Source of the DNA: Escherichia coli
GTDB taxonomy: Bacteria; Pseudomonadota; Gammaproteobacteria; Enterobacterales; Enterobacteriaceae
Assembly (NCBI RefSeq): GCF_017348835.2
Contig: NZ_CP071375.1
Length of the DNA stretch: 64,000 nt
Direction: 5' to 3' (one strand)
The position numbers and the translations under genes are program-made. Numbering within the stretch: position 1 is the first letter of the stretch; every line of letters starts with the position of its first letter. Below are positions 22,602 through 49,838 of this stretch, one piece after another. The notes below the pieces were generated by a model. It did no database searches. It saw only the letters and a list, made by a program, of their open reading frames with translations, and had not been told where the DNA came from.

Positions 22602-22928
22602 ATGACTAAAAATACTCGTTTTTCCCCCGAAGTCCGTCAGCGGGCGATTCGTATGGTTCTGGAAAGTCAGGATGAATATGACTCACAGTGGGCGGCAATT
22701 TGTTCCATTGCCCCAAAGATTGGCTGTACGCCGGAGACTCTGCGTGTCTGGGTTCGCCAGCATGAGCGGGATACCGGGAGTGGTGATGGTGGACTCACCA
22801 CCGCTGAACGTCAGCGTCTGAAAGAGCTGGAACGTGAAAATCGTGAACTGCGCCGCAGTAACGATATCCTTCGCCAGGCTTCCGCTTATTTTGCGAAGGC
22901 GGAGTTCGACCGCCTCTGGAAAAAATAA
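22602..22928 (+). CDS. IS3-family transposase OrfA (HTH)
   Basis: 108-aa [25 protein letters not shown]... with a C-terminal leucine-zipper-like segment; ends in an A-rich stretch overlapping the orfB ATG. Confidence 0.85.
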
Positions 22929-23815
22929 TGCCACTGCTGGATAAGCTGCGTGAGCAGTACGGGGTCGGACCGGTATGCAGCGAACTGCATATTGCCCCGT
23001 CAACGTATTACCATTGTCAGCAACAGCGACATCATCCGGATAAACGCAGTGCCCGTGCGCAGCACGATGACTGGCTGAAGAAAGAGATACAGCGCGTATA
23101 CGATGAAAATCACCAGGTATACGGTGTGCGTAAAGTCTGGCGTCAGTTGTTACGGGAAGGTATCAGAGTGGCCAGATGCACTGTGGCACGTCTCATGGCA
23201 GTTATGGGACTTGCCGGTGTTCTCCGGGGTAAAAAGGTCCGCACTACCGTCAGCCGGAAAGCCGTTGCCGCATGCGACCGCGTAAACCGTCAGTTCGTGG
23301 CAGAACGTCCAGACCAGTTGTGGGTGGCTGATTTTACCTGGGTAAGCACATGGCAGGGCTTCGTTTATGTGGCGTTCATCATTGATGTGTTCGCCGGATA
23401 CATCGTGGGATGGCAGGTCTCATCATCCATGGAAACAACATTCGTGCTGGATGCACTGGAGCAGGCGTTGTGGGCCCGTCGGCCGTCCGGCACAATCCAT
23501 CACAGTGATAAAGGTTCTCAGTATGTATCGCTGGCCTACACGCAGCGGCTTAAGGAAGCCGGATTACTGGCATCAACAGGGAGTACTGGCGACTCGTATG
23601 ACAACGCGATGGCTGAGAGCATCAATGGTCTTTACAAAGCGGAGGTAATACACCGTAAGAGCTGGAAAAACCGGACAGAAGTGGAACTGGCCACACTAAC
23701 GTGGGTGGACTGGTATAACAATCGACGATTGCTGGAAAGGCTGGGCCATATTCCTCCGGCAGAAGCAGAAAAAGCTTATTATGCTTCCATCGGAAATAAT
23801 GATCTGGCAGCCTGA
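22928..23815 (+). CDS. IS3-family transposase OrfB (DDE integrase core), probably expressed as an OrfAB fusion by -1 frameshifting
   Basis: 295-aa ORF with an rve-type DDE catalytic region (…HSDKGSQYVS…DNAMAES…). Confidence 0.85.
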   Translation: MPLLDKLREQYGVGPVCSELHIAPSTYYHCQQQRHHPDKRSARAQHDDWLKKEIQRVYDENHQVYGVRKVWRQLLREGIRVARCTVARLMAVMGLAGVLRGKKVRTTVSRKAVAACDRVNRQFVAERPDQLWVADFTWVSTWQGFVYVAFIIDVFAGYIVGWQVSSSMETTFVLDALEQALWARRPSGTIHHSDKGSQYVSLAYTQRLKEAGLLASTGSTGDSYDNAMAESINGLYKAEVIHRKSWKNRTEVELATLTWVDWYNNRRLLERLGHIPPAEAEKAYYASIGNNDLAA

Positions 23816-24045
23816 GTTCACAGATAAAACACTCTCCAGGAAACCCGGGGCGGTTCAAACTCGTACAGTGGCGTACCACTGGGGTCCATTCCTTCAAGTC
23901 TCAGGGAAGCCTCTGCTTTGCGGAAGCCCTCAATGCGTAACCGTGTATAGGGAGTCCTAGACATGTTTTTCCTTTGAGTTGCAGGAGTGAGGTTCGCTCA
24001 GTGAAAGCGTCAGCTCACGCAACCTCGTTAACTGACGCGCGTGAT

Positions 24046-25446
24046 TCAAGATTTATTATTACCCGATAAGCTATCACCGGCAAAATCATCATGTTCGCGG
24101 TTATCCCGACGAGTAGCTGTTTGTTTACTTATCTGAGTCGCCAACTCCTCTCCAATAGTTTGTTGGGCACGAGAAGAACTGCTACTTCGCTTCATTCTCT
24201 GGTACTCAGCAGCTCCGTTAGCCATGCTGCTTCCCATATGGCTTGCCATGCGGCCAGCACGCGAGAATGAAGCAAACCCCTGACTTCCTCCACTGGCGCT
24301 ACCTGAACTGCTCCCTGCAGACGAACCACTGTAACCGCCTGAGGTTTGGCCTCCAGAAGTATCTACAGAACCGGTATCTTCCCCGCCGCCAAATCCTCCA
24401 CCGGAACCGCCTCCGCTGCCTGAACCAGATTCTTCGTCCATGGCAGCTTGCGCAGACTCGAATGCTGCCTTTAATGCTGAAGCTCCGCCGCTGACTTGAG
24501 CTGATGCCCCCATTGCCATTGCTCCAGCACCGCTGATGGCAGTAGCGGCTGCGCCGGTAATCATACCCGCCCCAAATCCACCAATCCCTTGTAAAGAAGC
24601 CCCTCCTACAACACCTGATAACAACAGTGGTAGCTTATTAGTTAATACTAACAGGATAATTGACGCCAGAAGCAAAACTATAAGACTATTAAGATCAGGA
24701 ACATCATCTTTAATAAGAGAAAAATATTGATCTATAAATGATTGTCCAATCCCAATAATTAATGTCATCGTGAATAATTGAATGCCAATCGATAAAACAG
24801 TTCGTAAGTAATTAATTGCTATATCAGAGGTCCATTTCGAACCACCAAACCCAAGCAATATAACTCCTGCATAACATAACACCCATGCAGAAACCAACAT
24901 GATTAGCATATTTATCGCTATAAGGGACATCACTACCAAAACGATTATCGCGACTGTTATCATAATGGTGGATATCATTGGCGACCAAATTGATGCGGCT
25001 GAACTGATCTTGGTTAATATCGCAAACGCCATATCAACTATGCTTGAGGGAGAAATACCAATACTTATTTCTAAAGCGTTTGCTGCAAGTTGTCTCATTG
25101 AATTAATTATGGATTGCGATATGGATGGACCGTTGATTAAAAGATAATAAAAAAAACCAATGACGGCAAAAAAGCGAACTATTTCAGCAAGTACCCCTGT
25201 CAACCCTTCCCCTTGCATCGCCATCATACCAAATGTCCAAACCATACTTATTAATACCAGCCCCCAGAAGAGCCAATTTGCATAGTCAGCAATTACTGCT
25301 GTCCATGTACTGGCTACTTGTTGAAACTTATCTAATAAAGTATCAAGTAGCCCGCTACTATCTAATTGACCAGCATAGGCATTAATAGAAAAGAAAAGTA
25401 TGATACCTAAAAAGGTGAGCTTACTTACTATTTTCATGATTACCAT
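24046..25446 (-). CDS. TrbL/VirB6-like type IV secretion membrane protein with a Gly/Ser-rich C-terminal tail
   Basis: 466-aa ORF with signal peptide, multiple TM segments and a low-complexity GSGSGGGSGGG tail as in P-type TrbL; gene order trbJ-trbK-trbL. Confidence 0.65.
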   Translation of the reverse strand: MVIMKIVSKLTFLGIILFFSINAYAGQLDSSGLLDTLLDKFQQVASTWTAVIADYANWLFWGLVLISMVWTFGMMAMQGEGLTGVLAEIVRFFAVIGFFYYLLINGPSISQSIINSMRQLAANALEISIGISPSSIVDMAFAILTKISSAASIWSPMISTIMITVAIIVLVVMSLIAINMLIMLVSAWVLCYAGVILLGFGGSKWTSDIAINYLRTVLSIGIQLFTMTLIIGIGQSFIDQYFSLIKDDVPDLNSLIVLLLASIILLVLTNKLPLLLSGVVGGASLQGIGGFGAGMITGAAATAISGAGAMAMGASAQVSGGASALKAAFESAQAAMDEESGSGSGGGSGGGFGGGEDTGSVDTSGGQTSGGYSGSSAGSSSGSASGGSQGFASFSRAGRMASHMGSSMANGAAEYQRMKRSSSSSRAQQTIGEELATQISKQTATRRDNREHDDFAGDSLSGNNKS

Positions 25447-25631
25447 TCTCGTTTAGGGCTTGGTTTATTATTACTCCGTAGAGCACATTTATCGTATTTA
25501 TGTTCATCAAATTTATTATCTGGCATCGATAAACAATCTTTATCATTTTTATCGCAAGAACATATGGCCAATAAACTGATCAGAATAAATACAATCAAAA
25601 AATTATCTTTCATTCTGCGTTTCCTCACCAA
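25440..25631 (-). CDS. Small lipoprotein, TrbK-like (candidate entry-exclusion protein)
   Basis: 63-aa ORF with a signal peptide, an imperfect lipobox-like LAICSC segment and a Lys/Asp/Cys-rich mature part; sits between the trbJ-like and trbL-like genes as TrbK does in IncP plasmids. Confidence 0.45.
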   Translation of the reverse strand: MVRKRRMKDNFLIVFILISLLAICSCDKNDKDCLSMPDNKFDEHKYDKCALRSNNKPSPKREW

Positions 25632-26419
25632 ATTCGCTTCGGGCTTGGTGTATTCTCTCCAGCTAACGCTTTTTCATCAGCGGCTATCTGTTGTGATTCT
25701 TTATCTGCCTGAGCCTGTGCCAGTGTTGCTGCAGCGTTTTGTTGGGCTACCAGAAGTGAGCGGATTTGCAGTAACTGATTTGTCTGTGCACTGGCAAGCT
25801 GGTTTGCCGCCTGAATAGCTTCCATTTGCCCTTGTGCGCCGCTTGCCTGAGTTTGTAATTCGGCAAGATTATCAGCATCGCTCTGCAGGGTGTTCTGCTG
25901 CTCGTCAATTACCTTAAATACTGCGTCATTGGCCTTTTTACGCGCCCCTGAGCTATTCTGTTCAGCTTCACGCAGTGCACTAATTTCAGACGCGGTACAT
26001 TCAACATTGCTGTTAAAGCAAGACGATGTCCTGTAGTAGTTAACATCCTGATAGCGTTTCAGGTACGCATCGAGACTCCCGGCCTGATTCTTGTAGTAAT
26101 TAAGGGTATCCTGCACCTGCAACAATTTATTAATTGTTGAATTTGCCTGGTCCCAGATATAGGCCGCAGGAGCTACGGTGTTCTGCAGCATGTTTTCATA
26201 CTGCTGCAGCTGCGTCTGGTACTGCTGGATTTGTTTAGTCACAGCCTGAACGTTGTTAACTGCGCTGATTGTGGTCTGAACCACATTAGTGCCATCAATA
26301 ACGGGAATTCCGGCCTTCACCGGTAATGCCATGACGGACGCCACGAAAGGAACTATTAAAGCTTTTTTAGCGGCTAAAATCCCTCTTTGTGATGAAACCA
26401 CTCGGAACTTTAAATTCAT
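25625..26419 (-). CDS. TrbJ/VirB5-like type IV secretion protein
   Basis: 264-aa ORF with signal peptide and Gln/Ala-rich coiled-coil-type sequence; GAGGTGA Shine-Dalgarno 5 nt upstream of the ATG at 26419. Confidence 0.6.
   Translation of the reverse strand: MNLKFRVVSSQRGILAAKKALIVPFVASVMALPVKAGIPVIDGTNVVQTTISAVNNVQAVTKQIQQYQTQLQQYENMLQNTVAPAAYIWDQANSTINKLLQVQDTLNYYKNQAGSLDAYLKRYQDVNYYRTSSCFNSNVECTASEISALREAEQNSSGARKKANDAVFKVIDEQQNTLQSDADNLAELQTQASGAQGQMEAIQAANQLASAQTNQLLQIRSLLVAQQNAAATLAQAQADKESQQIAADEKALAGENTPSPKRIW
26366..26378. promoter_or_regulatory. 13-bp palindrome TTTAGCGGCTAAA (KorB operator-like), copy 1, inside the 5' end of the trbJ-like gene
   Basis: Exact perfect palindrome; matches the IncP KorB operator consensus TTTAGCSGCTAAA as recalled. 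Confidence 0.5.
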
Positions 26420-26499
26420 TTGCTCACCTCTTTTTCAACAGATTAGTAATATTTAACACTCTGTCTGTTAACAGACGCAGGTATATAGGAAACCACACA

Positions 26500-26865
26500 T
26501 TATTTATCCAAGATTTTATCCATAATGTTCCTTAGTTCTTGCCGAGTTGATTCTATTTTCGCAAGCAAGGTTCTTATCAGTGTGGGTGAAAAATCAACTG
26601 TTCGAGGATCATTTGCGAGCCATAATTTAAGTAATCCGCCAAGTCTTCCAAGATCAGCATTTACTCGGCTAAGTTCATTAACCTGTTTTATATCTACGAT
26701 AGAATCAACCTGATAACCCATTGCAACTCTACGAACAAAACAGGCAACACTTAATCCAGATGCTTCTGCATTTTCTTGGATGAGAATTTTTTCTTCGGGT
26801 AAACAATAAACTTTTATTGGCGTACTATTTTTTCTAGTCTGAGTAACTTTCATATAGCTCTCCAT
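26500..26865 (-). CDS. MobC-like relaxosome accessory protein (ribbon-helix-helix-type)
   Basis: 121-aa ORF; the segment VYCLPEEKILIQENAEASGLSVACFVRRVAMG and the following DLGRLGGLL fit the MobC-family pattern recalled from memory. Confidence 0.45.
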   Translation of the reverse strand: MESYMKVTQTRKNSTPIKVYCLPEEKILIQENAEASGLSVACFVRRVAMGYQVDSIVDIKQVNELSRVNADLGRLGGLLKLWLANDPRTVDFSPTLIRTLLAKIESTRQELRNIMDKILDK

Positions 26866-27252
26866 ACAGGCGGTAGCCTGGCAGCCTCGCAGAGCAGGAC
26901 GCCCTTGAGCCGCGATGCGGCGAATAGGGAGTGGTAAAGTTGGAACACCGTAGCGGTGGGCCCACTTTACATGTCCTGCCCTGCAGTTGCCGTTGTATAT
27001 CTGTGCACGACAATGTGTATTTCAGTGTACAGGATGTGTTTTCTTAGCGTATTAATATAGGATTACTGGAGTAAATTTCTGCAGCAAATGTGTTTTTTGC
27101 AAGGAAACTATATTTCTCCCTTTTGAAAATGACCTTTAGTAGTTATAAATGGACGTCCACCAACTGTATTTATGTTTCGATATATTGTAAGAAGTCTTTC
27201 ATTTTCCGATGCACTTTTTTACTTACCTTGTCAGAGCATGTGCATTGCAGAT

Positions 27253-36500: not shown

Positions 36501-37907
<1,407 letters not shown>

Positions 37908-37975
37908 GCCGGAAAAAAGGCGCCAGCATCGCATTAGGCAATAGCGCCCAGGCTACGCCAAATGCGCTCCCCTCG

Positions 37976-40900
37976 TCACTGGAAACAAGTAACCAGACCA
38001 GGTTTATTGGCTAACGTGATACAACAATCCTCTGTGCCAGTGCTCTCGTCCATCCCACACCGTTGAGAGGACAAGTAAGGGAAACTTGGCGAAGCTGGCC
38101 ATCCCAGCGAATTAAACACAGTATACAATGTCTCTAACTCATTGTATGTCGGTGCATTTTCTATATTTCCACACTGCTTCGAGATATCCCATTTGCTGGC
38201 ATCAGTAATATGCGCAGAAGCCCAGTTTTCGTAGTTAATAATCGGTGAGGATACGGGATTGGCCCCGGACGGTAATTCAGTTGTCAGTATCGGTCGATGT
38301 AATGTTTTTCCATTCACCACTGCCGTGTCTGCCATATGCCCCCAGAAGTGAGCAGAAGATACATTTGGGCTGGTCAATACGGTGAAAATAGTGTCCATCA
38401 TTGCAGTCACTGTTGGGTATTTATCCAGCGTTACCGTCAGCGGCATTTTATAACCCGGCGTATTGTCCTGACGAACAGTAAAGTTTGCCGTGCCGTCTGC
38501 CCCCGTCACGCCACTGATCTCGTTCCCACTAACCGCCAATAGGGTAGCCGCCCCCGATGATGGCTGGATGGTAATATCATCCATAGCCGCCACATCGCCA
38601 TATAGCGTCGCCCCACTATTACGCGGAGAGGCATCACCACGTCGCAGAGTAAACGCCACATTTGGCACAGGTTTCCCGGCGCTGTCTTTCACCGTCACGG
38701 TGACTGGCATTGCCTCGCCCTTCTTCACTTTCGCCGCCTGAGCGGTGGAGTCAAATGCCGTTGACGTCAGGGTGACGGTAGAAACCGTTGAGTGAGGGTG
38801 CACCAGGCACGCCTGGAAGGCGCGGCTTTTAGATACAGTCACAAGTTGACCTGTGTTGAAGTCAAATGATTCACAAGAATTCGCGCCCGCAGGACAATCT
38901 GCATTTGTCCACCACACATAGCTATTCTGTTTCACCGGCCAGCCAATCTCATTGACGATAGAGCCATTCGGATAGCGGTTGTATAAAGATTGAAGCTCAT
39001 CCAATGATGGATATCGTGCGCTTTCACAAGGGATAAGCTCCGGCAAATATCGCTGGGTAATATATGGCGCAGGCCAGCTTTCATTATTTATATTCACTTT
39101 AGTGAGCGAATAACCGCCACCGCTGGTTGCCCCCATTTCGGCCCACAGTTTCATCCGCTCAAACTGCGTTCCGTCTGCTGAGCTTACCGTTTCTGGCATA
39201 TGTCCCCAGAAGTTGGCTTTTGGCGTATCCGGGCTTGTTACTACGGTATACATCAGGTCGAGATCTGACTTTACCCCTGTTTCACGTGCAAGCGTCGCCG
39301 TAAACGGTGTTACCAGTCCCCAGGTATTATCCTGCGTAGCGGTTAACGTGATGATGCCATTACCGTCCGTAACCCCGTTCCAACTGGCGTTATCATCTGC
39401 AAATTTGTAATTGGCTTGCGCAACCGGCGTCAGGAACTGTAGCAGCAGATCATCTGCTGTCGAGCTTGTGAAATCACTCGGCGTGCGCACTTGTGCTGTC
39501 GCACGCGACAACCTGACGCTTTCATAGGCGGCAGGTCTGCCCGCATCATCCGTGACCTTGATAGTTAACGGTATTGATACGCCCTTCTTCGCCCATGCAG
39601 TCGGACGGTTGTCGTTGATGCCTGTTTTGTCCGCATTCAGCAACGTAGACGTCAACTCAATCGTCGTTGCCTCAGTGTGCGGGTCAACCAGGCAGAGCAT
39701 TAAATTGCCCGCCGTCGATGTTGTACTTTCGTTGCGGATAGCACCGCTCATCAGATCAAGCACCTGGTTATACCATGTTGAACTTGAAACAGTTTGGTCG
39801 TACGCCCACCAGTAATTACCTGCGTTAAGAGGCAGCCCCAAATCAGTTTCCAGCGCACCATTTGGATGGTCGTTGTAAAGCCCCATTAGCTCACTACTGA
39901 AGGGTTGATAAGGCGAAGTGCAGCCTGAGATCGAACTGTTCGCTTTGTTGGTTGCATCTGGTCGCGCCCAGTCTTCATTGTTGATATTAAAGGACGCAGT
40001 CCCGGACAACTCGGCCTTCAACTGTGGTCGCCTGAACGCGACGCCCGCGCTGCTGGTAAAGGTTTCCGGCATATGGCCCCAATAGTTAGCCTTCGGCGTA
40101 TCCGGGCTGGTGATCACTGTGAAAATCGCACTTAAAGATTGTGAAGCAATCGAACCATCGTCCAGTTTCGCCAACAACGGAATACGAACGCCATATCCTT
40201 TATGGAACTGATATACCGTCAACGTCGCCGTTCCGTCAGGCCCGGTAACACCATAAAAATCATCGCCCTCATTAATGATTGGCGTTTGATGATTGGATGA
40301 ATCCGTGATGTAAATTAATTTCGACTGGTAATCTGAACTTACTACATTCTGACGGCTAAGCGTCGCACCATGTTCCAGCAAGAAGGGTACATTACCCAGC
40401 AGATTTCCCTGCGCGTCGCGCGTTGTGACCTTAATGGTGATGAAATCATGATCAACTTCATAATTGGTTTTTGCTTTAACCCCCTGATTACCATCATAAA
40501 CCTGCGCTTGTTCAGAGGTTAACTCAATTGTGGCGACCTTCGGGTTAGCCGTTGTCTGGCAGGTTAAATACCCCCCTTTTGACTCCAGTACACTGCTGGT
40601 GCCATTACTCAGTTGCACACCAAGGTAATTACGATTACTTACGCTGGCACCATCGGCGGTGCTGGTGTCATAGACTTTTAATACTGGCCAGCCGTCTACA
40701 GCATGACCGCCCCAGCTTGTCGATAACGTGGTTAATGCATCTTTGGTCGGGATATTATCTGCGCCACAACCGTTATTTTTCGCATTCTTACTTGCCTGCG
40801 CTTCAGTAAACAGCGCCCAAATTTCGTTATCCTCTTCCGGGCTTTTACGTCCATTGCCGGGAGAACCACTCAGTTCTGAAAACAGGATCGGTCGCTTAAA

Positions 40901-43900
40901 CGTCAATCCTCCCGCTGTGAGTGTTTCTGGCATATGCCCCCACATTTTTGCCTTGTTAGTGTCAGGGCTGGTGACAACGGTAAAAATAGTGTCTAACGAT
41001 GCGTTTTTTGTTGGATCGGAATAGAGCGCAGCGGTAATTGCCGTTTTCGTGCCGTGAGTGTCCGGGCGGGTGATGGTGAGAATTTTGCTACCGTCACTCC
41101 CCGTTAACCCAGCGTATGCACTGGCAGTATCGTTAAGCGACATTTCATCTGACATTCCGGCATCCACCACGACCGGTGAAACGATCCCGTCACCGCTTCC
41201 TGCAATATGCTTTTCATTGCTACGGGTGTAACCATCGCCACGCTTCAGGGTAAAGGGCATTCCCGGCATCGGGTTACCCGCCGTATCTTTCACCGTGACT
41301 TTTACCTGTAGCGTTTCACCCTTTTTCAGTTTCGCTGCATTAAGCGTGCTATTCCACTGTGCCTGATCGACCACTTCCAGCGTAATGGTGCTGGCGGGTG
41401 GGTTAGCGTCCTTCAGGCAGGAGATATAAATTTCCGAGGAACTTGTTTGCACGTTTCCGTTATTCAGCCAAACCGCTGCAAAGTGCGGGACTTTATCGGT
41501 AGGCGTGCTACTCCAGTAAGGCTGGCGCTGAGTCGGCCAACCATGCTCAGTTTGAATCGCGTTATTACTGTTGGCGCGATAGAGCGCATCAAGCTGTGAC
41601 TGGCGTGGCACTTTATTGGCCTCACAACCGCCCACCGCGCTATTTTCGATCTCGGACTGATCGACGCGTAACCAGGTTTCATTATTTTCATCAAAGGGAC
41701 GCCCGGAACCGCTTACCTCCACCGCCAGTTTGGGGCGATTAAATGTAATAGAATCCACAGTTATCGTGTCATCCATGTGCCCCCACATTCTCGCTCCCAT
41801 CACATCCGGGCTGGTGGGAACCGTAAAGATTACATAGTAGTTAATGGTATTCGGCAGAACAGAATTAGGAGGCGTGACAACAAGTCGCGTTCTTAAGCCA
41901 ACGCCTTGTGGCTGCTCAACAACAACGGTTGCCTGCCCCTGTGCGTCTGTAATACCGGAGTAAACCATTGAGGATTGTGAGGTACCGTACTGCGTCCCAT
42001 TCAGGGTTATTGCGCCGTTACTGGGATCGGTAAACCCGGTTGCGCTTTCTTCACGGTCAAGACTGATATCTTTGGTAATAGTAAAAGCCGTGAACGGCAC
42101 CCGCTCGCCATTCAGAGCATTAACTGTGCGCACCGTCATGGTGATTTGTTCACCGACTTTCGCCCGTGCCAGGCTGCCCGAGGTAGTATCACGATCGGTT
42201 GTCACTTCAACCTTCGCCACCATCTCATTACCAGAGCACGAGAGATAGTTTTGTTTAAAACCGCTATAACTGTCGACGTTCCCTGTTCCGAGGTTTACCG
42301 ATGAATGCGTTGTCTGCTCCGCGGCAGTTAAATAGTCCTTTACTGCGGTTGGCCAGCCATACTCAGTCCCGATGATATTGCCAGGGTAAGCCGAATACAG
42401 ACTTTCCAGTGAGATCTCACGCGGTATATGCCCCGTGCCGCATTCTGCCTGCATACTGGTATTTTGATCGAATAACGCCCAGTCTTCGTTATTTTCCCGT
42501 ACTGTGCCTATTTCATGCGTGGTTTCAGCCGCCAGCAGCGGTCGTTTATATAAACTGCCAGCATCAATAATGCCGTGCATGTGGCCCCACATCCGCGCAT
42601 ATTCGCTGTCCGGACTGGTCACCACCGTAAAGACCACATCTTTGGCATCTTCAGCAGTGAAATTACTGCGCATTTTCGCCGTAATATGCGTTTTAACGCC
42701 TGCGCCGTCAGGCTGCGTCAGCAGCAGAGTTGCCTGACCATTGACGTCGGTCATTCCCTCATAATTATGATCATCTACCTTTTGCAGGTTGGTGCCGCCG
42801 GAAATTTGTACCGGATGCGCTTCCCACGCCGGATCGGTTTGATTTTTGCGGTTAACGCCGTCATCGAGATGCAGCGAGAAGTAGTAATAAGCCAGCGGCT
42901 GATTGTTATTTTTTTTATCGGTAATGGTCAGGCGTATCGTAGTGCTGTCACCGACCTCTGCCTTCGCGGCATTTATACTTTCATCAAAGTTACTGGGCGT
43001 GAGCACCAACTCTGGCTCAACATCGGGTTCTGCTTTATCCACACAGCTCACGATATACTTTGTACTGTCTGGTTTTTGCGCTTCGCTGCGGTTAGACACA
43101 TCAGCCGCGTGGTGCTGCCCGGTACTTCCTGCCAGAGATGACCAGTAATAATCACCCTGCATCGGCCAACCGGCGGTCTCCTGAATAGAGTTAGGGATCA
43201 CCGTAGCCAGCGCGCCAAACTGGCGCATGCCAGGCAAAATATCGCAGTGGTTATCTGCGCCACTCCAGGTGAAGGTCGACCAGGTTTCACCGTGATCGTT
43301 CACACTGCCATCTTCGTTATCAACTTCCGCCGCCAATTTCGGACGACTAAAGGTGTAATTCATGGCCGTCAGGGTTTCCGCCATATGGCCCCACATATTG
43401 GCCTGCGGGGCATCCGGGCTGGTGAGTACAGTAAATATCACCGCCGTTTCACTGGTTTGCGAGATGCCAGAAAGGCTGACCACCAGCGGCGTTTTGACAC
43501 CTGGACCATTGGGCTGCGTCACCGTGACGGTAGCTGCGCCATCAGCATTAGTCGTGCCCCGATACTCCGTTGCTGTGGTGGTGAGTTCAGTGGTATCAAG
43601 ATTGACAGGTGAGGTGTTATTCACCACTCCCTGGCGGTTTTCAGCATCTTTTCGTTTGATAACAAAAGGGATATTGCTCGCAATATTACCTTCACAATCT
43701 TGGGTGGTTACGGTTAAGGTGATTGAACCATCGACAGTAGTCTTTGCCGCTTGTAACGTATCGTCATAGCCACTGGCGCTAATTGTCACCAGGTCGCCCT
43801 GGGCGGGAGCAATATTCAGCGTCACTTTATGTTCAGCCAACGGCACCGTCCCCTGATTAGGCACACCAGTTAACGTGTAGAGGTAGAGTAAAGGTAGCGC

Positions 43901-44386
43901 TTCCTGCTCATTGATTCGCGGCCACGCCACCAAAGAACGCCCTGCCAGATTCTGCGCGCAGAAAGAGCGGTCCGGGCGCGGTTGTGGGCTGAGCGGCGTA
44001 TCTGGCGTCGCGGCATCCGTCCACACAAGAGATACAGCAGGAGGCGTCTGGTTTTGCCAGCCTAGCACGGGGGGATTAGAAAAAAGATCGCCTTCAGGAT
44101 CGTGAGGGTTAACCAGAATCATTCTCGCCGCTGTGTCATCAACACTGAATGCGCTGGGTTTTACAGATGCCTGAATGTCGTAGGTTTTGCTCGGATCAAG
44201 CTGAACGCTTCCCTGATAAACGGGTACGCTGGCGCTCTCTGCCCCGGGCACTGTGCCATTGATTGCGTCGGTCGAGATGCCAGTTTGTTGCCACTGGCCA
44301 CCTTTTAATACTGCCCCAACCTGAAAAGAGAGGAAGAGCAGAAAAACCGCCGTTATCGCTTTTATCAGTTTCAAAGTCCCGTCCAT
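37976..44386 (-). CDS. Giant surface-exposed repeat protein (RatA/RatB-like), 2136 aa, seven tandem ~290-aa modules
   Basis: Signal peptide, then seven modules each ending in the signature (I/V)FTV(L/V)TSPD-x5-(M/Y/F)WGHM-x12-16-RP(K/I/Q)L...NNE(D/N)W; position between xseA and the sinI/sinH-like genes, as recalled for the Salmonella CS54 island. Confidence 0.6.
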
Positions 44387-44520
44387 GATTGAAACCTGCC
44401 CGTTTAAAGTTATTTTTTCACTTCAACCCACTTTGCTTAACGCTGGCTAAGCAAAGTGTGCGGAGAAGCACCATTCCCTTGCTGAAATGACCAGATTGTT
44501 GACAAAGTGCGCGTTATTCA

Positions 44521-44620
44521 TGCCGGATGCGGCGTTAACGCCTTATCCGACCTACAAAATCGTGCAAATTCAATACATTGCAGGAACCATGTAGGCCTGA
44601 TAAGCGAAGCACATCAGGCA
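44521..44620. repeat. Pair of inverted REP units (BIME-like)
   Basis: TGCCGGATGCGGCGTTAACGCCTTATCCGACCTAC at 44521-44555 and GTAGGCCTGATAAGCGAAGCACATCAGGCA at 44591-44620. Confidence 0.8.
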
Positions 44621-44676
44621 GTTTTGCCTTTGTCATCAATCTGACCATTCCCTTGCGGGAATGGTGCTGGTAAAGA

Positions 44677-45642
44677 TTATTTTCTCTGGTAATCGATGGA
44701 CAAACCGTAGCCCTGAACACCATCCGCGCCAAGGGTGAGGCCACCTTCGCTGTAGTCGAACGCAGTTTTCGCTTCGGCGTTGGTAACTGGGATAACCAGG
44801 TCGCTGTTGTTGTAGCTCGGGTTGACAATCCCACCGTTGGTACGCAGTTGCAGACTGGTACCGGTAAAGCGCCAGCGGTAGTTGTACTGGCTGGTAACCT
44901 CTTCGCCAGTGTCGTAGGAGCCGTTGCTGTTTTTATCTTTCCACAGCATGACCTGATAAGTGGTATTGGTTTTGAGTTTGGTTTCTTTGCCCAGCAGGTT
45001 GGTGTTAACACCCTGCTCATGAATGACAACTTTAACCGCATCGTCAAATACCGGACCTTCCGGAATATCATCGCTGTCAGAACCACCGCCCGCGTTGGTG
45101 GAGAGGTCTAACAGGATCAGTTGTTCTGCAACGTTAGGATCACCGGTCGTGGTGGTCGGGGTAATTTTCAAACCGATGTAGCGATCGGCATCCGCTGCGG
45201 CAATGGTATAGGTGTCACTGCCCGTTGTACCGATCTCTTTCGGATCACCCCCCGCCTGGTCGCTATAGCTCATCCATTGCAGCGTCGCTTTGGTTGCAGT
45301 GTTGTTGTCGTCAAGGTCGCCCTGGGTATCGCCAATGGCCCAGTTTGCAGTTAACTTGTCACCAATATGAAATTGCTTCTCGCCATCGGTTGAAGCAGAA
45401 CGTCCGCCACGATCAACGGTAATGGACACATGAGATTTATCGGCATCAGTCGTTTCTGACGCGCTACGGGTGATCCACGGCACGGTACCCTGAATCGTTC
45501 CGGTCGTTTGCGTCTCTGACTGCCACTGGCCCGCTCTAAGGTTGCCCTGCCCTTCTGCCATGGCGGCAGGCACTGCGCAGTACCCCGCTAAAGCCAGCGC
45601 CAGCGCGACTTTAGTCATCGGTCGCTTTAAATAGTGTTTCAT
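44677..45642 (-). CDS. SinI-like secreted/outer-membrane-associated protein
   Basis: 321-aa ORF (signal peptide MTKVALALALAGYCAVPAAMA if started at the internal Met) whose C-terminal ~100 aa are homologous to the C-terminus of the adjacent 726-aa protein. Confidence 0.55.
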   Translation of the reverse strand: MKHYLKRPMTKVALALALAGYCAVPAAMAEGQGNLRAGQWQSETQTTGTIQGTVPWITRSASETTDADKSHVSITVDRGGRSASTDGEKQFHIGDKLTANWAIGDTQGDLDDNNTATKATLQWMSYSDQAGGDPKEIGTTGSDTYTIAAADADRYIGLKITPTTTTGDPNVAEQLILLDLSTNAGGGSDSDDIPEGPVFDDAVKVVIHEQGVNTNLLGKETKLKTNTTYQVMLWKDKNSNGSYDTGEEVTSQYNYRWRFTGTSLQLRTNGGIVNPSYNNSDLVIPVTNAEAKTAFDYSEGGLTLGADGVQGYGLSIDYQRK

Positions 45643-45697
45643 TCAACTCTCTCCTTGATTAATTTCCAGCGGCTGGCCGATCGGCCATTACGCCGAT

Positions 45698-47878
45698 CTA
45701 GTGCTTGCTGTAAACCACACGTAATCCATACCCCTGCACGCCATCCTCTTTTTGGGCACCAAATTTCTGTACCGCTTCCTCGTTAGTGGCAGGGATGACA
45801 ATATCTTCATTACTGGTATTCGATTGCGCACCGGTGTAGCCATTGACGCTGTGTCCGGTAAATTCCCACTGGTAGTCGTATTGCGCCATTTCTTCTTCCG
45901 TCAGTTTTTCCGACTGCTGGAAAACGCCATCTTTGTTGACATCGCGCCACAGGACAAAACGATAGGCGTTATCAACAGGCAAATGCTCTTTCTCATTGCC
46001 GATAAGATTGATGGGGTTAGTCGCGGATACACGGTAGATAAAGGCATTAACATCGTTGCCCCCCGCGCCGAGGAAAGTCACATCGACATAGTTACTATCG
46101 TCATACGGTGCGGCCTTTGCTTTCCAGCGGAAGGTGCCGGGCAAAGTACTGGAGAGGGTGACGGTTCCTTTCTCTTTATCTTGCTTCGCGATAAAGACGC
46201 ACGGGTTATCGGTCGAGCAGGGTTTATTGGTGAGGGTGACTTTTTTATCCTGAGCATCGTAAAGCTGCGGACTCAGGCCATCTTCCGGCAGCGCATTACC
46301 GTTACGGTCAGTGTCATCACCAAAGCTATCGGTAACATCGAGATCCATCACCACGCCATCGACGCCATCCGCCTGAGCGCTGGCTTCATGACTGTGATTG
46401 TTTTCATCCGGCACATCCGCAATGTTGTTGACGATCAGTTCAATTTTGCGATCCTGCTGAACGGTGATTTCCACCACGCCGGAGTTTTGCCGGTTGCCTT
46501 TTTCATCTTCCAGAGCCAGACGCACGCGCCAGGTATTGAGTTTTTCCTGTTCGGCGGGATCAGAGCTGTACTGCCAGGCTGGCAGCACCAGATTCCAGTG
46601 GTTGTTGTTCCCTTCCGTGAGGGTATTTTCTTTGATAACCGGCATCACCAGAGTACGCGCAGCGTTGTTTCTCGCCTGCCAAGAGGCGACGACAATCTTA
46701 TAGTGATGATTGATTAGCGCATTGATTGTCCACTTACATTTTTCCAGCCCTACCGCAGCTTCGGGGGTGTCCTTGATGACACAATCCGGGTGTTCATTGG
46801 TGGCGTCAGCCTTCAGCCACAACGTAACGTCGAGAGGATCTTTTTCTTTATATTCCAGAACAATAAAATTATTGCGCTCAACAAAGTCATGGCGGCTGCC
46901 CATCAGCGAGTGAGCTGCTTTGACGTTATCGCTATTCAGTTGATCTTTTAGCGGAACACCGAACTGATAGTTAATCGTGGCGTTAACGCTAAGATCACTG
47001 TTATCTCCGGTACCTGCTTTATAATCCGTCCCGACCGTCAGTAACGGAACGGGTTGATAGTTCACGCCAAGCGTCACTGCATAGGGATCTTTTTCTAAAT
47101 TATCGGTGCCGAAGAGCGCCACTTCGTCACCATAATATTGCTCGAAAACAATTTTGCTCCCCAACTGAGGATAAGAAGGAAGCCTGGCTTCCGCCCGGAC
47201 ATCCCAGCCACGTGCGGGGCGTTCTAAATAGAAATCAAAATCTTTTGAATCTTTCCACTCTGAAAGCGGATGATAATAGTTACCAGAAAATTTTAAATAA
47301 TCCGTCCAGGCTTCTGTTCCCAAACCTAAACGGCGATGTCCGCGGGTGAAATCATAATCATAAAATATATTCCCCCCCAGAAGCCATTTATCAAAATTAT
47401 GTCTTACACCTAAACCTATATTACCTATCGTGCGTTCTTCTTTTCGTTGCGCAGAAAACTGACTGAAATAGACTGTGCTCTGATTGTCATACCAGGGGAC
47501 AAAATAGTCGATTGAACTGCCGTCCAGATCGCCACCCTGACCGATGGAAAGGTTAGAGCGAACTTTACCATAAGGAGAAAGCGCACCTTCGATATAAGAC
47601 TGTGCAGATGATGTGATTTGCCCTTGCAGATAGCTTCTCGCCTGGGATTCAAGAGCTTCTGGAGTCAGGTTCTCAAAGCCCTGCTGGGCGGACTCGGTAA
47701 CGTAATTGGCACCACGTTCCTTGAAAGATTTGCCTTTGTTACTTTGTTCCTCTTGTTGAGCCGTTTCGCTTGCCAGATCAGGTAATGAAGATTCGCTTTG
47801 CTTAATATTTATCTCCGGTGCCGCATAAGCAGCACCAGAAATAACGATTAGCGTTATATAGCGAATCCATCGCAGCAT
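45698..47878 (-). CDS. SinH-like intimin/invasin-family outer membrane protein (inverse autotransporter-like)
   Basis: 726-aa ORF with signal peptide; beta-rich N-terminal half (a candidate barrel) and a C-terminal passenger; length and position match Salmonella SinH as recalled. Confidence 0.55.
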   Translation of the reverse strand: MLRWIRYITLIVISGAAYAAPEINIKQSESSLPDLASETAQQEEQSNKGKSFKERGANYVTESAQQGFENLTPEALESQARSYLQGQITSSAQSYIEGALSPYGKVRSNLSIGQGGDLDGSSIDYFVPWYDNQSTVYFSQFSAQRKEERTIGNIGLGVRHNFDKWLLGGNIFYDYDFTRGHRRLGLGTEAWTDYLKFSGNYYHPLSEWKDSKDFDFYLERPARGWDVRAEARLPSYPQLGSKIVFEQYYGDEVALFGTDNLEKDPYAVTLGVNYQPVPLLTVGTDYKAGTGDNSDLSVNATINYQFGVPLKDQLNSDNVKAAHSLMGSRHDFVERNNFIVLEYKEKDPLDVTLWLKADATNEHPDCVIKDTPEAAVGLEKCKWTINALINHHYKIVVASWQARNNAARTLVMPVIKENTLTEGNNNHWNLVLPAWQYSSDPAEQEKLNTWRVRLALEDEKGNRQNSGVVEITVQQDRKIELIVNNIADVPDENNHSHEASAQADGVDGVVMDLDVTDSFGDDTDRNGNALPEDGLSPQLYDAQDKKVTLTNKPCSTDNPCVFIAKQDKEKGTVTLSSTLPGTFRWKAKAAPYDDSNYVDVTFLGAGGNDVNAFIYRVSATNPINLIGNEKEHLPVDNAYRFVLWRDVNKDGVFQQSEKLTEEEMAQYDYQWEFTGHSVNGYTGAQSNTSNEDIVIPATNEEAVQKFGAQKEDGVQGYGLRVVYSKH

Positions 47879-48087
47879 GTTTTTCCCTGTGAAAATTTAA
47901 TTCTGAAATAATGTCTAATATTGTATTCCAGATAGCACAGGAACTGCACTCCATAAGTGCTAAATATAATCTTAAAATTATAAGAATGTGACTTTACACA
48001 TTTTTAATTAGTCGTTAATCTAATAGGAAAGAGATTATAATATTTATATTAGGAATATATAATGTGAAATCATATATTCCAGTGATA

Positions 48088-48303
48088 TTAAACAATGACA
48101 AATTCAATACGGGTTTTAGAAATTAAACCGTGACCATGCAGGCAGAAATAATCCACCGCACCACACGCTTTTAATACCTGCAACGGTTGGTGGCAGTCAG
48201 GACAAAGAGCCTGGACTATGAAATCTTTGTTACACGTTGCGCAGTGAGTAGCCTCGCCATTACGTTCGAGAGGGTTTTGGCAGATTGGGCAGCTGAGTTC
48301 CAT
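48088..48303 (-). CDS. yfgJ: Zinc-ribbon protein YfgJ
   Basis: 71-aa ORF with two CxxC pairs (CPICQN...CATCNK; CPDCHQ...CLHGH). Confidence 0.85.
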   Translation of the reverse strand: MELSCPICQNPLERNGEATHCATCNKDFIVQALCPDCHQPLQVLKACGAVDYFCLHGHGLISKTRIEFVIV

Positions 48304-48365
48304 AAATGATCCTCACATTTTTATGGGTTTCCCTCTCCATATGGAAAGGGAAACCAGATAAGTAA

Positions 48366-49838
48366 TTACTTACTTTTCTTGATATGCTTCATCAGGCGCT
48401 TACGCTTGCGCATCTGGGTCGGCGTCAGGGTGTTACGCTTATTCGCATACGGGTTTTCCCCTTCTTTGAACTGAATACGAATCGGCGTCCCCATCACATC
48501 CAGAGACTTGCGGAAATAGTTCATCAGATAACGCTTGTAGGAATCCGGCAGGTCTTTTACCTGGTTACCGTGAATCACCACAATCGGCGGGTTATAGCCA
48601 CCTGCGTGAGCATACTTCAGCTTCACACGACGACCACGTACCAGCGGCGGCTGGTGATCTTCAACTGCCATGGTCATAATACGTGTCAGCATAGACGTTC
48701 CCACACGACGGGTGGAGCTGTCATACGCTTCACGTACTGATTCAAACAAGTTACCAACACCACTGCCGTGCAAGGCAGAGATAAAGTGCACACGAGCAAA
48801 ATCGATAAAGCCCAGACGGAAGTCCAGCGTTTCTTTCACCTGCTCTTTCACTTCCTGACTCAGGCCATCCCACTTATTCACCACAATGACAAGTGAGCGC
48901 CCACTATTGAGAATAAAGCCCAGCAGCGAGAGATCCTGATCGGAAATACCTTCGCGCGCATCAATCACTAACATCACCACGTTGGCATCTTCAATGGCCT
49001 GCAACGTTTTGATTACGGAGAATTTCTCTACAGCATCGGTGATTTTGCCGCGTTTACGTACGCCAGCGGTGTCAATGAGCACATACTCACGTCCATCGCG
49101 TTCCATTGGGATGTAGATGCTGTCACGCGTCGTGCCAGGCATGTCGTAAACAACAACGCGCTCTTCACCAAGAATACGGTTAGTGAGTGTAGACTTACCT
49201 ACGTTCGGACGACCCACAATCGCCAGTTTGATCGGCAGACTTTGCGGGTCGAAGTCGTCTTCCTCTTCTTCTTCGCCGTTCTCTTCCGCTTCAAATTGCG
49301 CCCAGTATTCAGCGTCTTCGTCGACTTCCTCTTGCGGTGCGAGATCTTCCATCCACGGCAGCAGCACATGCTCCAGCAGACTTAATACGCCACGACCGTG
49401 AGACGCGGCGATCGGGTAGATTTCACCTAAACCAAGCGAGTAGAAATCAACCACTGCCTGATCGGGATCCAGACCGTCAGTTTTGTTTGCCACCAGGAAG
49501 GTCGGTTTTTCACGGGAGCGCAGATGTTTGGCAATCGCTTCATCTGCCGGCATCAGGCCCGCGCGCGCATCCACCATAAACAGTACGACGTCCGCTTCTT
49601 CAATCGCCAGCAGCGACTGTTCCGCCATGCGGGTTTCTACACCGTCTTCTGTGCCATCAATCCCGCCGGTATCAATACAGATAAACTCACGGCCTTCAAT
49701 TTCCGCACGACCGTACTTACGGTCACGAGTCAGACCCGGGAAATCCGCAACCAGCGCATCTCGGGTGCGAGTTAGACGGTTAAATAACGTGGATTTTCCT
49801 ACGTTAGGGCGCCCGACAAGCGCGACCACAGGTACCAT
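48366..49838 (-). CDS. der: Ribosome-associated GTPase Der (EngA), tandem GTPase domains plus KH-like domain
   Basis: Start at [23 protein letters not shown] (490 aa) with GAGG Shine-Dalgarno 9 nt upstream; two G1 motifs GRPNVGKS. Confidence 0.95.

Follow-up and report, generated by a model that had tools for sequence, protein, structure and literature searches.

Is a very large protein built from seven tandem modules a passive stalk or a string of binding units, and how would such a protein, which has no beta-barrel of its own, be displayed outside the cell? These questions are raised by one open reading frame in a stretch of 64,000 nucleotides of Escherichia coli DNA that was analysed as a whole (here called the window). 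According to the ORF list and its translation, the frame opens with ATG and contains zero internal stops across 2136 amino acids (aa). The protein is 100% identical to WP_096220561.1 of E. coli PE164, and a sequence search also returned an NCBI entry named "RatA-like protein" that is 100% identical to it. Its whole-protein scores against the NCBIfam models are 3237 bits for RatA-like (NF011844), 1945 for RatB and 1638 for RatA. The curated cut-off of the NF011844 equivalog, 3870 bits, is not reached, a shortfall that we ascribe to the 7 modules of the window protein against about 9 in the model (length 2683); RefSeq consequently labels the protein "adhesion domain-containing protein", and the identical sequence is called RatA-like in other NCBI entries. 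We identify the gene as encoding a RatA-like giant adhesin of the Escherichia sinH-sinI-ratA island (the "ila" cluster), which is the counterpart of Salmonella CS54. The locus consists of the following features.

36531..37907, plus strand: xseA, core gene on one flank of the island, convergent with ratA (RefSeq)
37976..44386, minus strand: ratA-like coding sequence, 2136 aa plus stop codon (ORF list and translation)
44387..44676, minus strand: sinI-ratA spacer of 290 nt, with a REP/BIME cluster at about 44492-44642 and a 13-bp hairpin at about 44430-44459 (sequence)
44677..45642, minus strand: sinI, barrel-less partner protein of 321 aa (NCBIfam partner_SinI)
45698..47878, minus strand: sinH (= iatB), inverse autotransporter of 726 aa (NCBIfam inverse_SinH; RefSeq agrees)
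48088..48303, minus strand: yfgJ, core gene and other flank of the island (RefSeq; K-12 comparison)

RefSeq annotates the gene order der-yfgJ-sinH-sinI-ratA-xseA in E. coli PE164, and the same order is present in JJ1886 and in three further strains of E. coli. The first-pass annotation had stated that K-12 lacks the gene at this site and that it corresponds by position to ratA/ratB of the CS54 island. Both statements are borne out: the K-12 site is empty, with xseA abutting yfgJ, and the correspondence follows from the yfgJ-sinH-sinI-rat-xseA order together with the RatA-like, RatB and RatA matches in NCBIfam. The Rat gene family, both of its Pfam domains, the island and the E. coli version of the island (published as the ila cluster) are already known, and the window locus is no new kind of system.

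The modular architecture is visible at the protein level. The tetrapeptide TSP[DN] occurs exactly seven times (aa 322, 590, 858, 1139, 1426, 1717 and 2005) and WGHM follows ten residues past each (aa 332, 600, 868, 1149, 1436, 1727 and 2015), giving a motif TSP(D/N)-x5-(M/Y/F)WGHM with spacings of 268, 268, 281, 287, 291 and 288 aa. Typical residue frequencies would, by our own estimate, yield fewer than 0.001 chance occurrences of WGHM in a protein of this length. Pfam assigns seven BIg21 domains (PF05688, formerly DUF824) and seven InvE_AD domains (PF05689, formerly DUF823) that strictly alternate (i-Evalues 1e-14 to 1e-33). The ORF with seven modules and the place of its first WGHM, aa 332 (nt 43393), had thus been read correctly from the sequence alone. 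The signature had been placed at the end of the module, and it actually lies in the middle, at the junction of the two domains. The element NNE(D/N)W named along with it is exact, as NNEDW, in two modules; four others have NNETW, NNESW, DNEIW and NYENW, and module 1 has HGETW. The protein divides as follows.

44312..44386, minus strand: predicted Sec signal peptide, aa 1-25 (read by eye from the sequence)
43727..44311, minus strand: Rat-family N-terminal domain, aa 26-220, all-beta, about 195 aa, confined to Rat proteins
44240..44308, minus strand: mature N-terminal leader motif, aa 27-49, common to SinI (hhalign)
42941..43726, minus strand: module 1, aa 221-482, BIg21 221-321 and InvE_AD 324-449 (Pfam; alignment)
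42155..42940, minus strand: module 2, aa 483-744, BIg21 483-589 and InvE_AD 592-718 (Pfam; alignment)
41321..42154, minus strand: module 3, aa 745-1022, BIg21 745-856 and InvE_AD 860-991 (Pfam; AF2; Foldseek)
40445..41320, minus strand: module 4, aa 1023-1314, BIg21 1023-1138 and InvE_AD 1141-1276 (Pfam)
39578..40444, minus strand: module 5, aa 1315-1603, BIg21 1315-1425 and InvE_AD 1428-1566 (Pfam); this and one other internal module differ most from allele to allele
38720..39577, minus strand: module 6, aa 1604-1889, BIg21 1604-1716 and InvE_AD 1719-1860 (Pfam); internal, inside the zone of copy-number variation
37979..38719, minus strand: module 7, aa 1890-2136, BIg21 1890-2004, shortened InvE_AD 2007-2109 and Cys-rich C-terminal cap (Pfam)

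Among the 26 invariant columns of the module alignment are TV-TSP, A-x2-WGHM, R-x2-L-x2-E, E-W and two cysteines. Between modules the protein identity is 26-37% and the codon-aligned DNA identity 39-47%. Tandem Repeats Finder reports no array in the ratA-like gene and a DNA repeat search recovers only the approximately 70 nt that encode the TSPD-WGHM motif; the repeat shows itself in the protein only, not in DNA-level repeat finders. The earlier view that the copies are divergent in DNA and old is supported, since paralogous modules are about 30% identical and modules at the same position in other alleles 45-99%. The InvE_AD of module 7 covers positions 1-105 of the 136 in the Pfam model; the C-x(n)-C-x(n)-C tail behind it recurs in the RatA- and RatB-position proteins of a Salmonella-type contig.

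The modules, each an Ig-like BIg21 domain plus an InvE_AD adhesion domain, are homologues of the two-domain tip of InvE, an invasin of Yersinia. A profile of the modules matches the crystallised InvE tip (PDB 5N40) with an E-value of 6e-47, and an AF2 model of module 3 (pLDDT 70) finds the same structure as its best Foldseek match (E 1.5e-15); the next match, a C-terminal fragment of intimin (1F00), has a low TM-score of 0.24. The C-terminal superdomains of intimin and invasin bear a more distant likeness to the window modules than InvE does. The TSPD...MWG(N/H)M junction is common to the tip of Y. pseudotuberculosis InvE and to the window modules. Unlike InvE, an inverse autotransporter that has its own beta-barrel and ends in just one adhesion domain, the window protein is barrel-less and carries the tip unit seven times; the trait that marks the passenger tip of type Ve (inverse) autotransporters, an Ig-like domain followed by a lectin-like adhesion domain, is thus found seven times instead of once. 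We take the lectin-like character of InvE_AD from the structures of InvE, intimin and invasin, and Pfam also gives weak Lcl_C matches in the window protein. Because each module matches the InvE tip, the protein is, as judged from sequence and a structural model, a chain of seven putative binding heads and not a passive Ig stalk.

Three NCBIfam models match the first 220 aa, namely RatA-like (E 6e-83), RatA (8e-71) and RatB (2e-58), and the Rat-family domain stands at the N-terminus of nearly all listed relatives. The predicted signal peptide, recognised by eye, has a basic n-region, a hydrophobic core and VGA preceding the conserved mature start, and all homologues have an equivalent leader that ends just ahead of a conserved WQ motif. 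We considered a type 1 secretion substrate comparable to SiiE, a giant adhesin exported by that route, and the classical N-terminal signal peptide ruled this out. The surface location given in the first-pass annotation is putative: behind its signal peptide the window protein shows no beta-barrel, lipobox or recognisable anchor; in Pfam, neither half matches IAT_beta (PF11924), and the barrel is in the separate SinH.

SinH matches NCBIfam inverse_SinH over its full length with 1481 bits (cut-off 999), and SinI matches partner_SinI with 419.8 bits (cut-off 165); the C-terminal 110 aa of SinI resemble the C-terminus of SinH. All three genes, sinH, sinI and ratA-like, lie on the minus strand and are separated by 55 nt and 290 nt. 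Within the longer gap the REP consensus is matched with 0 mismatches at 44522-44549, the spacer scores 52.4 bits against Rfam ES036/CssrF (gathering score 37.6) and its fold has a z-score of -8.4. The REP/BIME core is a dispersed E. coli repeat with a median of 3 places per genome, and it is an extra element of the window allele compared with the common RatA-like alleles of ExPEC; the corresponding spacer in JJ1886 is only 109 nt. It may uncouple the expression of ratA from that of sinH-sinI. Consensus scans for promoters and terminators in 37700-48500 found about as many sites as in shuffled sequence, and we draw no operon inference from them.

A link between the two barrel-less proteins is found right behind their signal peptides. 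The approximately 22-residue leader motif of the ratA-like protein, (L-K-x-G)-x-W-Q-x5-6-(S/T)(T/G)-x-(I/F)-x-G-T-x-P, aligns with aa 35-57 of SinI (hhalign E 2.7e-4, 48% identity). It lies within the first 90 aa of 124 out of 133 Rat proteins and 107 out of 118 SinI proteins and occurs nowhere else in those proteins. The first 15 modelled residues in this region (about aa 26-40) have a pLDDT below 50 in AF2. Leader variants tend to match within a locus, the observed score being reached by 6 of 720 permutations; this co-variation rests on essentially two lineages and may reflect a single historical event or gene conversion. The NGT of the leader was considered as a glycosylation sequon and ruled out, since the corresponding residues of SinI are QGT. 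That SinH would recognise the motif as a dedicated signal for export or docking is a tentative idea, and we consider it rather doubtful. No description of the motif was found in the literature searched, and its sharing between SinI and Rat proteins may be a new observation.

The order of an IAT_beta gene, a SinI-like gene and one or more Rat genes is kept well beyond the window. It is found in two metagenomic loci, in one of which the SinI-like gene is split into two ORFs, and in a CS54-like contig, which judging by its accession we take to be Salmonella. There the order is sinH-sinI-ratA-ratB, followed by a PATR-repeat gene that is presumably shdA. Salmonella RatA and RatB (NF011843, NF011842) have a homologous N-terminal domain, the BIg21 plus InvE_AD array and the site downstream of sinH-sinI beside xseA, and the window gene has the same traits of the family: alternating domains, a signal peptide with the N-terminal domain, and the position between yfgJ/der and xseA. 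The Salmonella-type contig has two paralogous rat genes of 6 modules each, whereas the window has one gene of 7 modules and no shdA; modules at the same position are about 42-56% identical between them. Within the genus, the RatA-like proteins (NF011844) of E. coli and E. albertii share the N-terminal domain, module type and yfgJ-xseA locus of the window protein. The common ExPEC alleles, however, have 9 modules (about 2680-2697 aa, against 7 modules and 2136 aa) and are only 52-56% identical overall to it. The island is present in about 30% of complete E. coli genomes and the 7-module allele in about 47 of 5426; since the allele recurs in 47 complete genomes, disruption of the ORF upon re-sequencing is unlikely. 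Among relatives the number of modules ranges from 6 to 11.

From these data we propose the following picture, to which we give a probability of roughly 55%. The RatA-like protein would be exported by Sec to the periplasm, and its crossing of, or docking at, the outer membrane would be aided by the co-encoded SinH, with the short leader common to Rat and SinI perhaps taking part in the outer-membrane step. Seven diverged lectin-like heads would then be displayed as a chain for multivalent binding to host or mucus ligands, and such binding would promote colonisation of the gut or urinary tract. Gain and loss of internal modules, together with strong allelic divergence, may tune reach, specificity and antigenicity. 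In line with a role in colonisation by relatives, the mouse caecum is not colonised optimally without ratB (PMC8011750, citing Kingsley 2003), and deletions of ila-cluster genes attenuate UPEC in murine urinary tract infection (PMC12928451). The SinH-dependent step is a hypothesis by analogy, with which the leader motif common to SinI and Rat proteins agrees without proving it. Rat-like proteins have been proposed as substrates of SinH-type inverse autotransporters (Heinz 2016, PMC4943183), and the comparison with Salmonella ZirT/ZirS/ZirU, in which an inverse-autotransporter gene is followed by barrel-less partner genes in the same layout as sinH-sinI-ratA, was drawn for such loci there and in a passage of Goh 2019 (PMC6714894), which also equates IatB with SinH. 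ZirS and ZirU are barrel-less Ig-domain partners, whereas the partners at the window locus would be SinI and a Rat protein that exceeds 2000 aa and bears lectin-like heads; in NCBIfam the two do not fall into the Zir families, SinI having a weak ZirU_fam match of 28.5 bits, far under the cut-off of 100, and the Rat protein none.

The reading from which we depart most directly is that of a passive Ig-like stalk, as had been assumed at the outset. It is correct in part: the protein is a large, repeat-built member of an adhesin family, BIg21 makes up an Ig-like half of every module, alleles differ in their number of modules (6 to 11) much as stalks of variable length do, and across E. coli the DNA of the last module is the best conserved, at about 79% identity in most genomes with the island, which would suit a unique tip. 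The other half of every module is nonetheless a full InvE_AD, homologous to the terminal adhesion domain of InvE; none is Ig-only, so that the array holds seven tip-like units and no spacer. Moreover, neither the two invariant cysteines of InvE_AD nor the conserved WGHM junction has been lost, and heads that are only about 30% identical to one another and yet intact fit seven maintained functional units. A stalk is thus improbable. Still less credible is that the gene is a decaying or silent remnant of the island without function in PE164. The rarity of the 7-module allele would suit a remnant, as would the G+C content, about 0.42 upstream of sinH versus 0.50-0.54 across the ratA-like gene, AT-rich promoters being often silenced by H-NS. 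LeuO raises iatB promoter activity, as reported in part of PMC6714894, and rat genes are frequently pseudogenes in host-adapted Salmonella according to an excerpt of PMC8011750. Against decay, the 6.4-kb ORF is unbroken and the invariant residues are kept in all seven modules, sinH and sinI are full length and above curated cut-offs, and intact copies are found in other genomes with this allele as well as in a 91%-identical cluster of 492 members.

A stronger competitor concerns the route and not the heads. The adhesin could be exported or retained independently of SinH, through another route, in outer-membrane vesicles or in the periplasm or envelope, and it could bind bacterial glycans in aggregation or biofilm instead of host receptors. 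A Sec signal in a protein with no intrinsic outer-membrane anchor is compatible with this, as are the strongly folding REP/BIME between ratA and sinH-sinI and the Salmonella-type contig with two rat genes behind one sinH. Furthermore, IatB/SinH forms biofilm in the absence of its downstream partner in assays described in a portion of PMC6714894, so that the partnership is not obligatory for SinH function. This alternative is weakened by the synteny with an inverse-autotransporter gene and sinI at every examined locus that has upstream DNA (two metagenomic contigs end before the sinH position), by the leader motif common to SinI and by the ZirT/S/U precedent (PMC4943183). We hold SinH-independent export to be unlikely, although it is the most serious of the competing explanations, and continue to favour the SinH-aided display of seven heads.

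The locus is a clear-cut example of what the "repeats" of Rat proteins are, namely whole invasin tips, seven in number; multivalent and perhaps module-specific binding is implied. If the leader motif is indeed an export or docking signal for SinH, a type Ve inverse autotransporter would translocate or anchor a giant seven-headed lectin-like adhesin in a two-partner-like system. The shared leader motif offers a concrete handle on the proposed SinH-dependent export of a barrel-less protein of more than 2000 aa, and the variation of module number (6-11) and sequence between lineages matters for ExPEC vaccine work on the neighbouring SinH.

The RatA-like gene noticed in the first-pass annotation is an uninterrupted reading frame in both the ORF list and the translation:

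37976..44386, minus strand: RatA-like open reading frame, intact, 2136 aa

Its translation contains exactly seven TSP[DN] motifs, and WGHM follows each of them by ten residues (aa 332, 600, 868, 1149, 1436, 1727, and 2015), giving a module period of 268–291 aa. In Pfam, seven BIg21 domains (PF05688) alternate with seven InvE_AD domains (PF05689) at i-Evalues of 1e-14 to 1e-33, and the motifs and domain pairs together uphold the earlier count of seven copies; the first WGHM starts at nt 43393, in agreement with its previous placing. The signature had been put at the end of the module; it lies rather at the mid-module junction between the two domains, and only two modules carry the accompanying NNE(D/N)W element in its exact form. 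Alignment of the seven modules leaves 26 invariant columns, including TV-TSP, A-x2-WGHM, R-x2-L-x2-E, E-W, and two cysteines per head that would fit a disulfide. Pairwise identity between modules is 26–37% in protein and 39–47% in codon-aligned DNA, Tandem Repeats Finder reports no array in the RatA-like DNA, and the sole repeat detectable at the DNA level is a stretch of ~70 nt coding for the signature; the DNA-level divergence described before is thus borne out.

A profile of the seven modules has one strong match among solved structures, InvE of Yersinia pseudotuberculosis (PDB 5N40, E 6e-47), and the alignment spans both its penultimate Ig-like domain and the adhesion domain at its end, including '...VITSPDSAQASMWGNMAETLTA...'. 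The AlphaFold2 model of module 3 (pLDDT 70) also finds 5N40 as its best Foldseek match (E 1.5e-15, TM 0.62), followed by the intimin C-terminal fragment 1F00 at a low TM-score of 0.24. Therefore each repeat, like the 'tip' of an invasin, is an Ig-like domain joined to an adhesion head, and the RatA-like protein strings seven heads together rather than forming the Ig-like stalk first proposed. The head is presumably lectin-like, judging from the structures of InvE, intimin, and invasin and from weak Pfam matches to Lcl_C in the protein. In the last module the head is shortened, and a Cys-rich cap forms the C-terminus.

A megablast survey of 5426 complete E. coli genomes detected ratA-related DNA in 1724 of them and the sinH-sinI pair in 1570, while the allele lineage of the window, counted at a coverage of at least 80% of allele length, occurs in only 46–47; the common alleles are only about 73–79% identical to it in DNA where alignable. 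Module number, counted with an HMM built from the RatA-like modules, varies with protein length.

Modules per protein and protein length
6 modules: about 1740–1890 aa
7 modules: about 2110–2260 aa
8 modules: about 2380–2660 aa
9 modules: about 2610–2710 aa
11 modules: about 3264 aa

Shorter entries with 2–5 modules are probably fragments. Modules are positional orthologues across alleles; in the other Escherichia alleles compared, counterparts of modules 1–4 are 47–99% identical and those of the last module 55–98%, and the strongest divergence falls in internal modules 5–6, where copy number changes. Because paralogous modules share about 30% identity and orthologous ones 45–99%, the array is older than the divergence of the alleles, and the same comparison sustains the earlier view of old or diversified copies.

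The window matches E. coli PE164, which was isolated from a pig (NZ_CP114128.1), at 100% identity, and the local gene order is der, yfgJ, sinH, sinI, ratA-like, xseA (convergent), guaB, and guaA. In K-12 MG1655 yfgJ directly abuts xseA, confirming the reported absence from K-12, and sinH, sinI, and the ratA-like gene therefore form an island. Against NCBIfam, SinH scores 1481 bits where the curated cut-off is 999, and SinI 419.8 bits where it is 165. JJ1886 (ST131), three other E. coli strains, and two metagenomic loci share the arrangement of the island; of the two loci, one borders xseA at one end and stops before the sinH position, and the other has the barrel gene and a SinI-like gene split into two ORFs. 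A further NCBI contig, which its accession suggests is Salmonella, has the CS54 order: an inverse-autotransporter gene is followed by a sinI-like gene of 319 aa, two genes of the Rat type, and one with PATR repeats, read here as shdA; its RatA- and RatB-position proteins have six modules each and the same C-terminal cap pattern. This shared arrangement bears out the earlier matching of the gene, by position, to ratA/ratB of CS54. The 5' end of sinH and its upstream region (47000–48500) are AT-rich (G+C 0.42–0.43 against ~0.52 in the rest of the island), which we presume fits H-NS silencing. The C-terminal ~110 aa of SinI (aa 212–321; 44677–45006) are similar to the last ~105 aa of SinH (45698–46020), with NCBIfam cross-matches at E 1.8e-19 and 1.7e-22, a likeness that Heinz et al. 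(2016; PMC4943183) say Kingsley (2003) had pointed out in Salmonella.

Between sinI and ratA lies the following spacer, defined from the sequence:

44387-44676 (core about 44492-44642), minus strand: 290-nt sinI-ratA spacer with REP/BIME cluster

It matches the REP consensus with 0 mismatches at 44522-44549 and Rfam ES036/CssrF at 44556-44598 (52.4 bits, the gathering score being 37.6), and as RNA it folds at -122 kcal/mol (z -8.4). Its core belongs to a repeat that is dispersed in E. coli, at about 3 places per genome, and the 109-nt spacer of JJ1886 is without it; the cluster might act on the sinH-sinI transcript, either as a terminator or by stabilising it. A 13-bp perfect hairpin (CACACUUUGCUUA/UAAGCAAAGUGGG type) lies at about 44430-44459 (minus strand), ~45 nt ahead of the ATG of the ratA-like gene, and no T-run follows it in the spacer.

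Elsewhere, guaA is adjoined at about 22602-32952 by a tyrosine integrase and then LuxR-family, HTH, RepA-helicase, traJ, trbJ, and trbL genes, until an IS3-family transposase cuts the element off. This stretch, with G+C falling to 0.38–0.45, has the look of an integrative conjugative element that was truncated, and it occupies the guaA-yfgG interval where K-12 and strains 135 and 2012C-4502 have yfgI-yfgH. RefSeq marks pdeF (internal stop, about 19722-21965) and hyfR (frameshift, about 4928-6939) as pseudogenes.

The family is already known and the island already described: NCBI lists this very sequence under the name 'RatA-like protein', and a 10-kb E. coli island with ratA, sivI, and sivH was reported in 2013 (PMC3739510). 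In UPEC the cluster goes by the name ila, and deletions in it attenuate strains in murine UTI (PMC12928451), and sinI is co-transcribed with sinH (PMC12525524). IatB has been equated with E. coli SinH, and LeuO is reported to raise iatB promoter activity (PMC6714894); optimal colonisation of the mouse caecum needs ratB (PMC8011750).

That the protein is a Rat-family adhesin is near certain. Residues 1–25, read by eye, look like a Sec signal peptide, and export would begin with a Sec step; a search of the sequence and of Pfam for a beta-barrel, lipobox, or other anchor in the protein found none. Heinz et al. (2016; PMC4943183) drew a parallel to ZirT/ZirS/ZirU and proposed that inverse autotransporters of the SinH type have Rat-like proteins as their substrates. 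Homology, synteny, and published work on relatives suggest that SinH would assist export or anchoring, that lectin-like heads would bind multivalently, and that the protein may act in colonisation; we give this whole chain, from Rat adhesin to colonisation, a probability of about 0.55. A tentative alternative, to which we give clearly less weight, is that export or function does not depend on SinH, with bacterial glycans among the possible ligands. A passive stalk is unlikely, the modules having matched InvE as tip-like units in profile and module 3 also in fold, and a silent remnant, set beside the intact frame, is the least probable reading of all.

In SinI and in the RatA-like protein alike, a short motif comes directly after the signal peptide:

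44240-44308, minus strand: leader motif, RatA-like aa 27-49 (hhalign against SinI)
45472-45540, minus strand: leader motif, SinI aa 35-57 (hhalign against RatA-like)

The first ~22 residues of the mature RatA-like protein and those of mature SinI (LRAGQWQSETQTTGTIQGTVPWI) align at E 2.7e-4 with 48% identity, following the pattern G-x-WQ...(S/T)(T/G)-x-(I/F)-x-GT-x-P. By regular expression, 124/133 Rat and 107/118 SinI proteins have it within their N-terminal 90 aa, and it occurs nowhere else in their about 330,000 residues. The start of the region is predicted to be unstructured (pLDDT <50 for the first 15 residues modelled by AF2). Within one locus the leader variants of SinI and Rat tend to match, as in strain 135 (AEESAWVDS...F.GT.P and AESAWQDS...F.GT.P) and, with LKxGxWQ in both proteins, in PE164, the Salmonella-type contig, and a metagenomic locus (L006); the within-locus score is reached by 6 of 720 partner permutations. 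The co-variation comes from no more than about two lineages, so that a single event or gene conversion could account for it. The shared leader is the only lead here that may be new, and it is compatible with a putative signal, common to both proteins, for export through SinH or docking to it.
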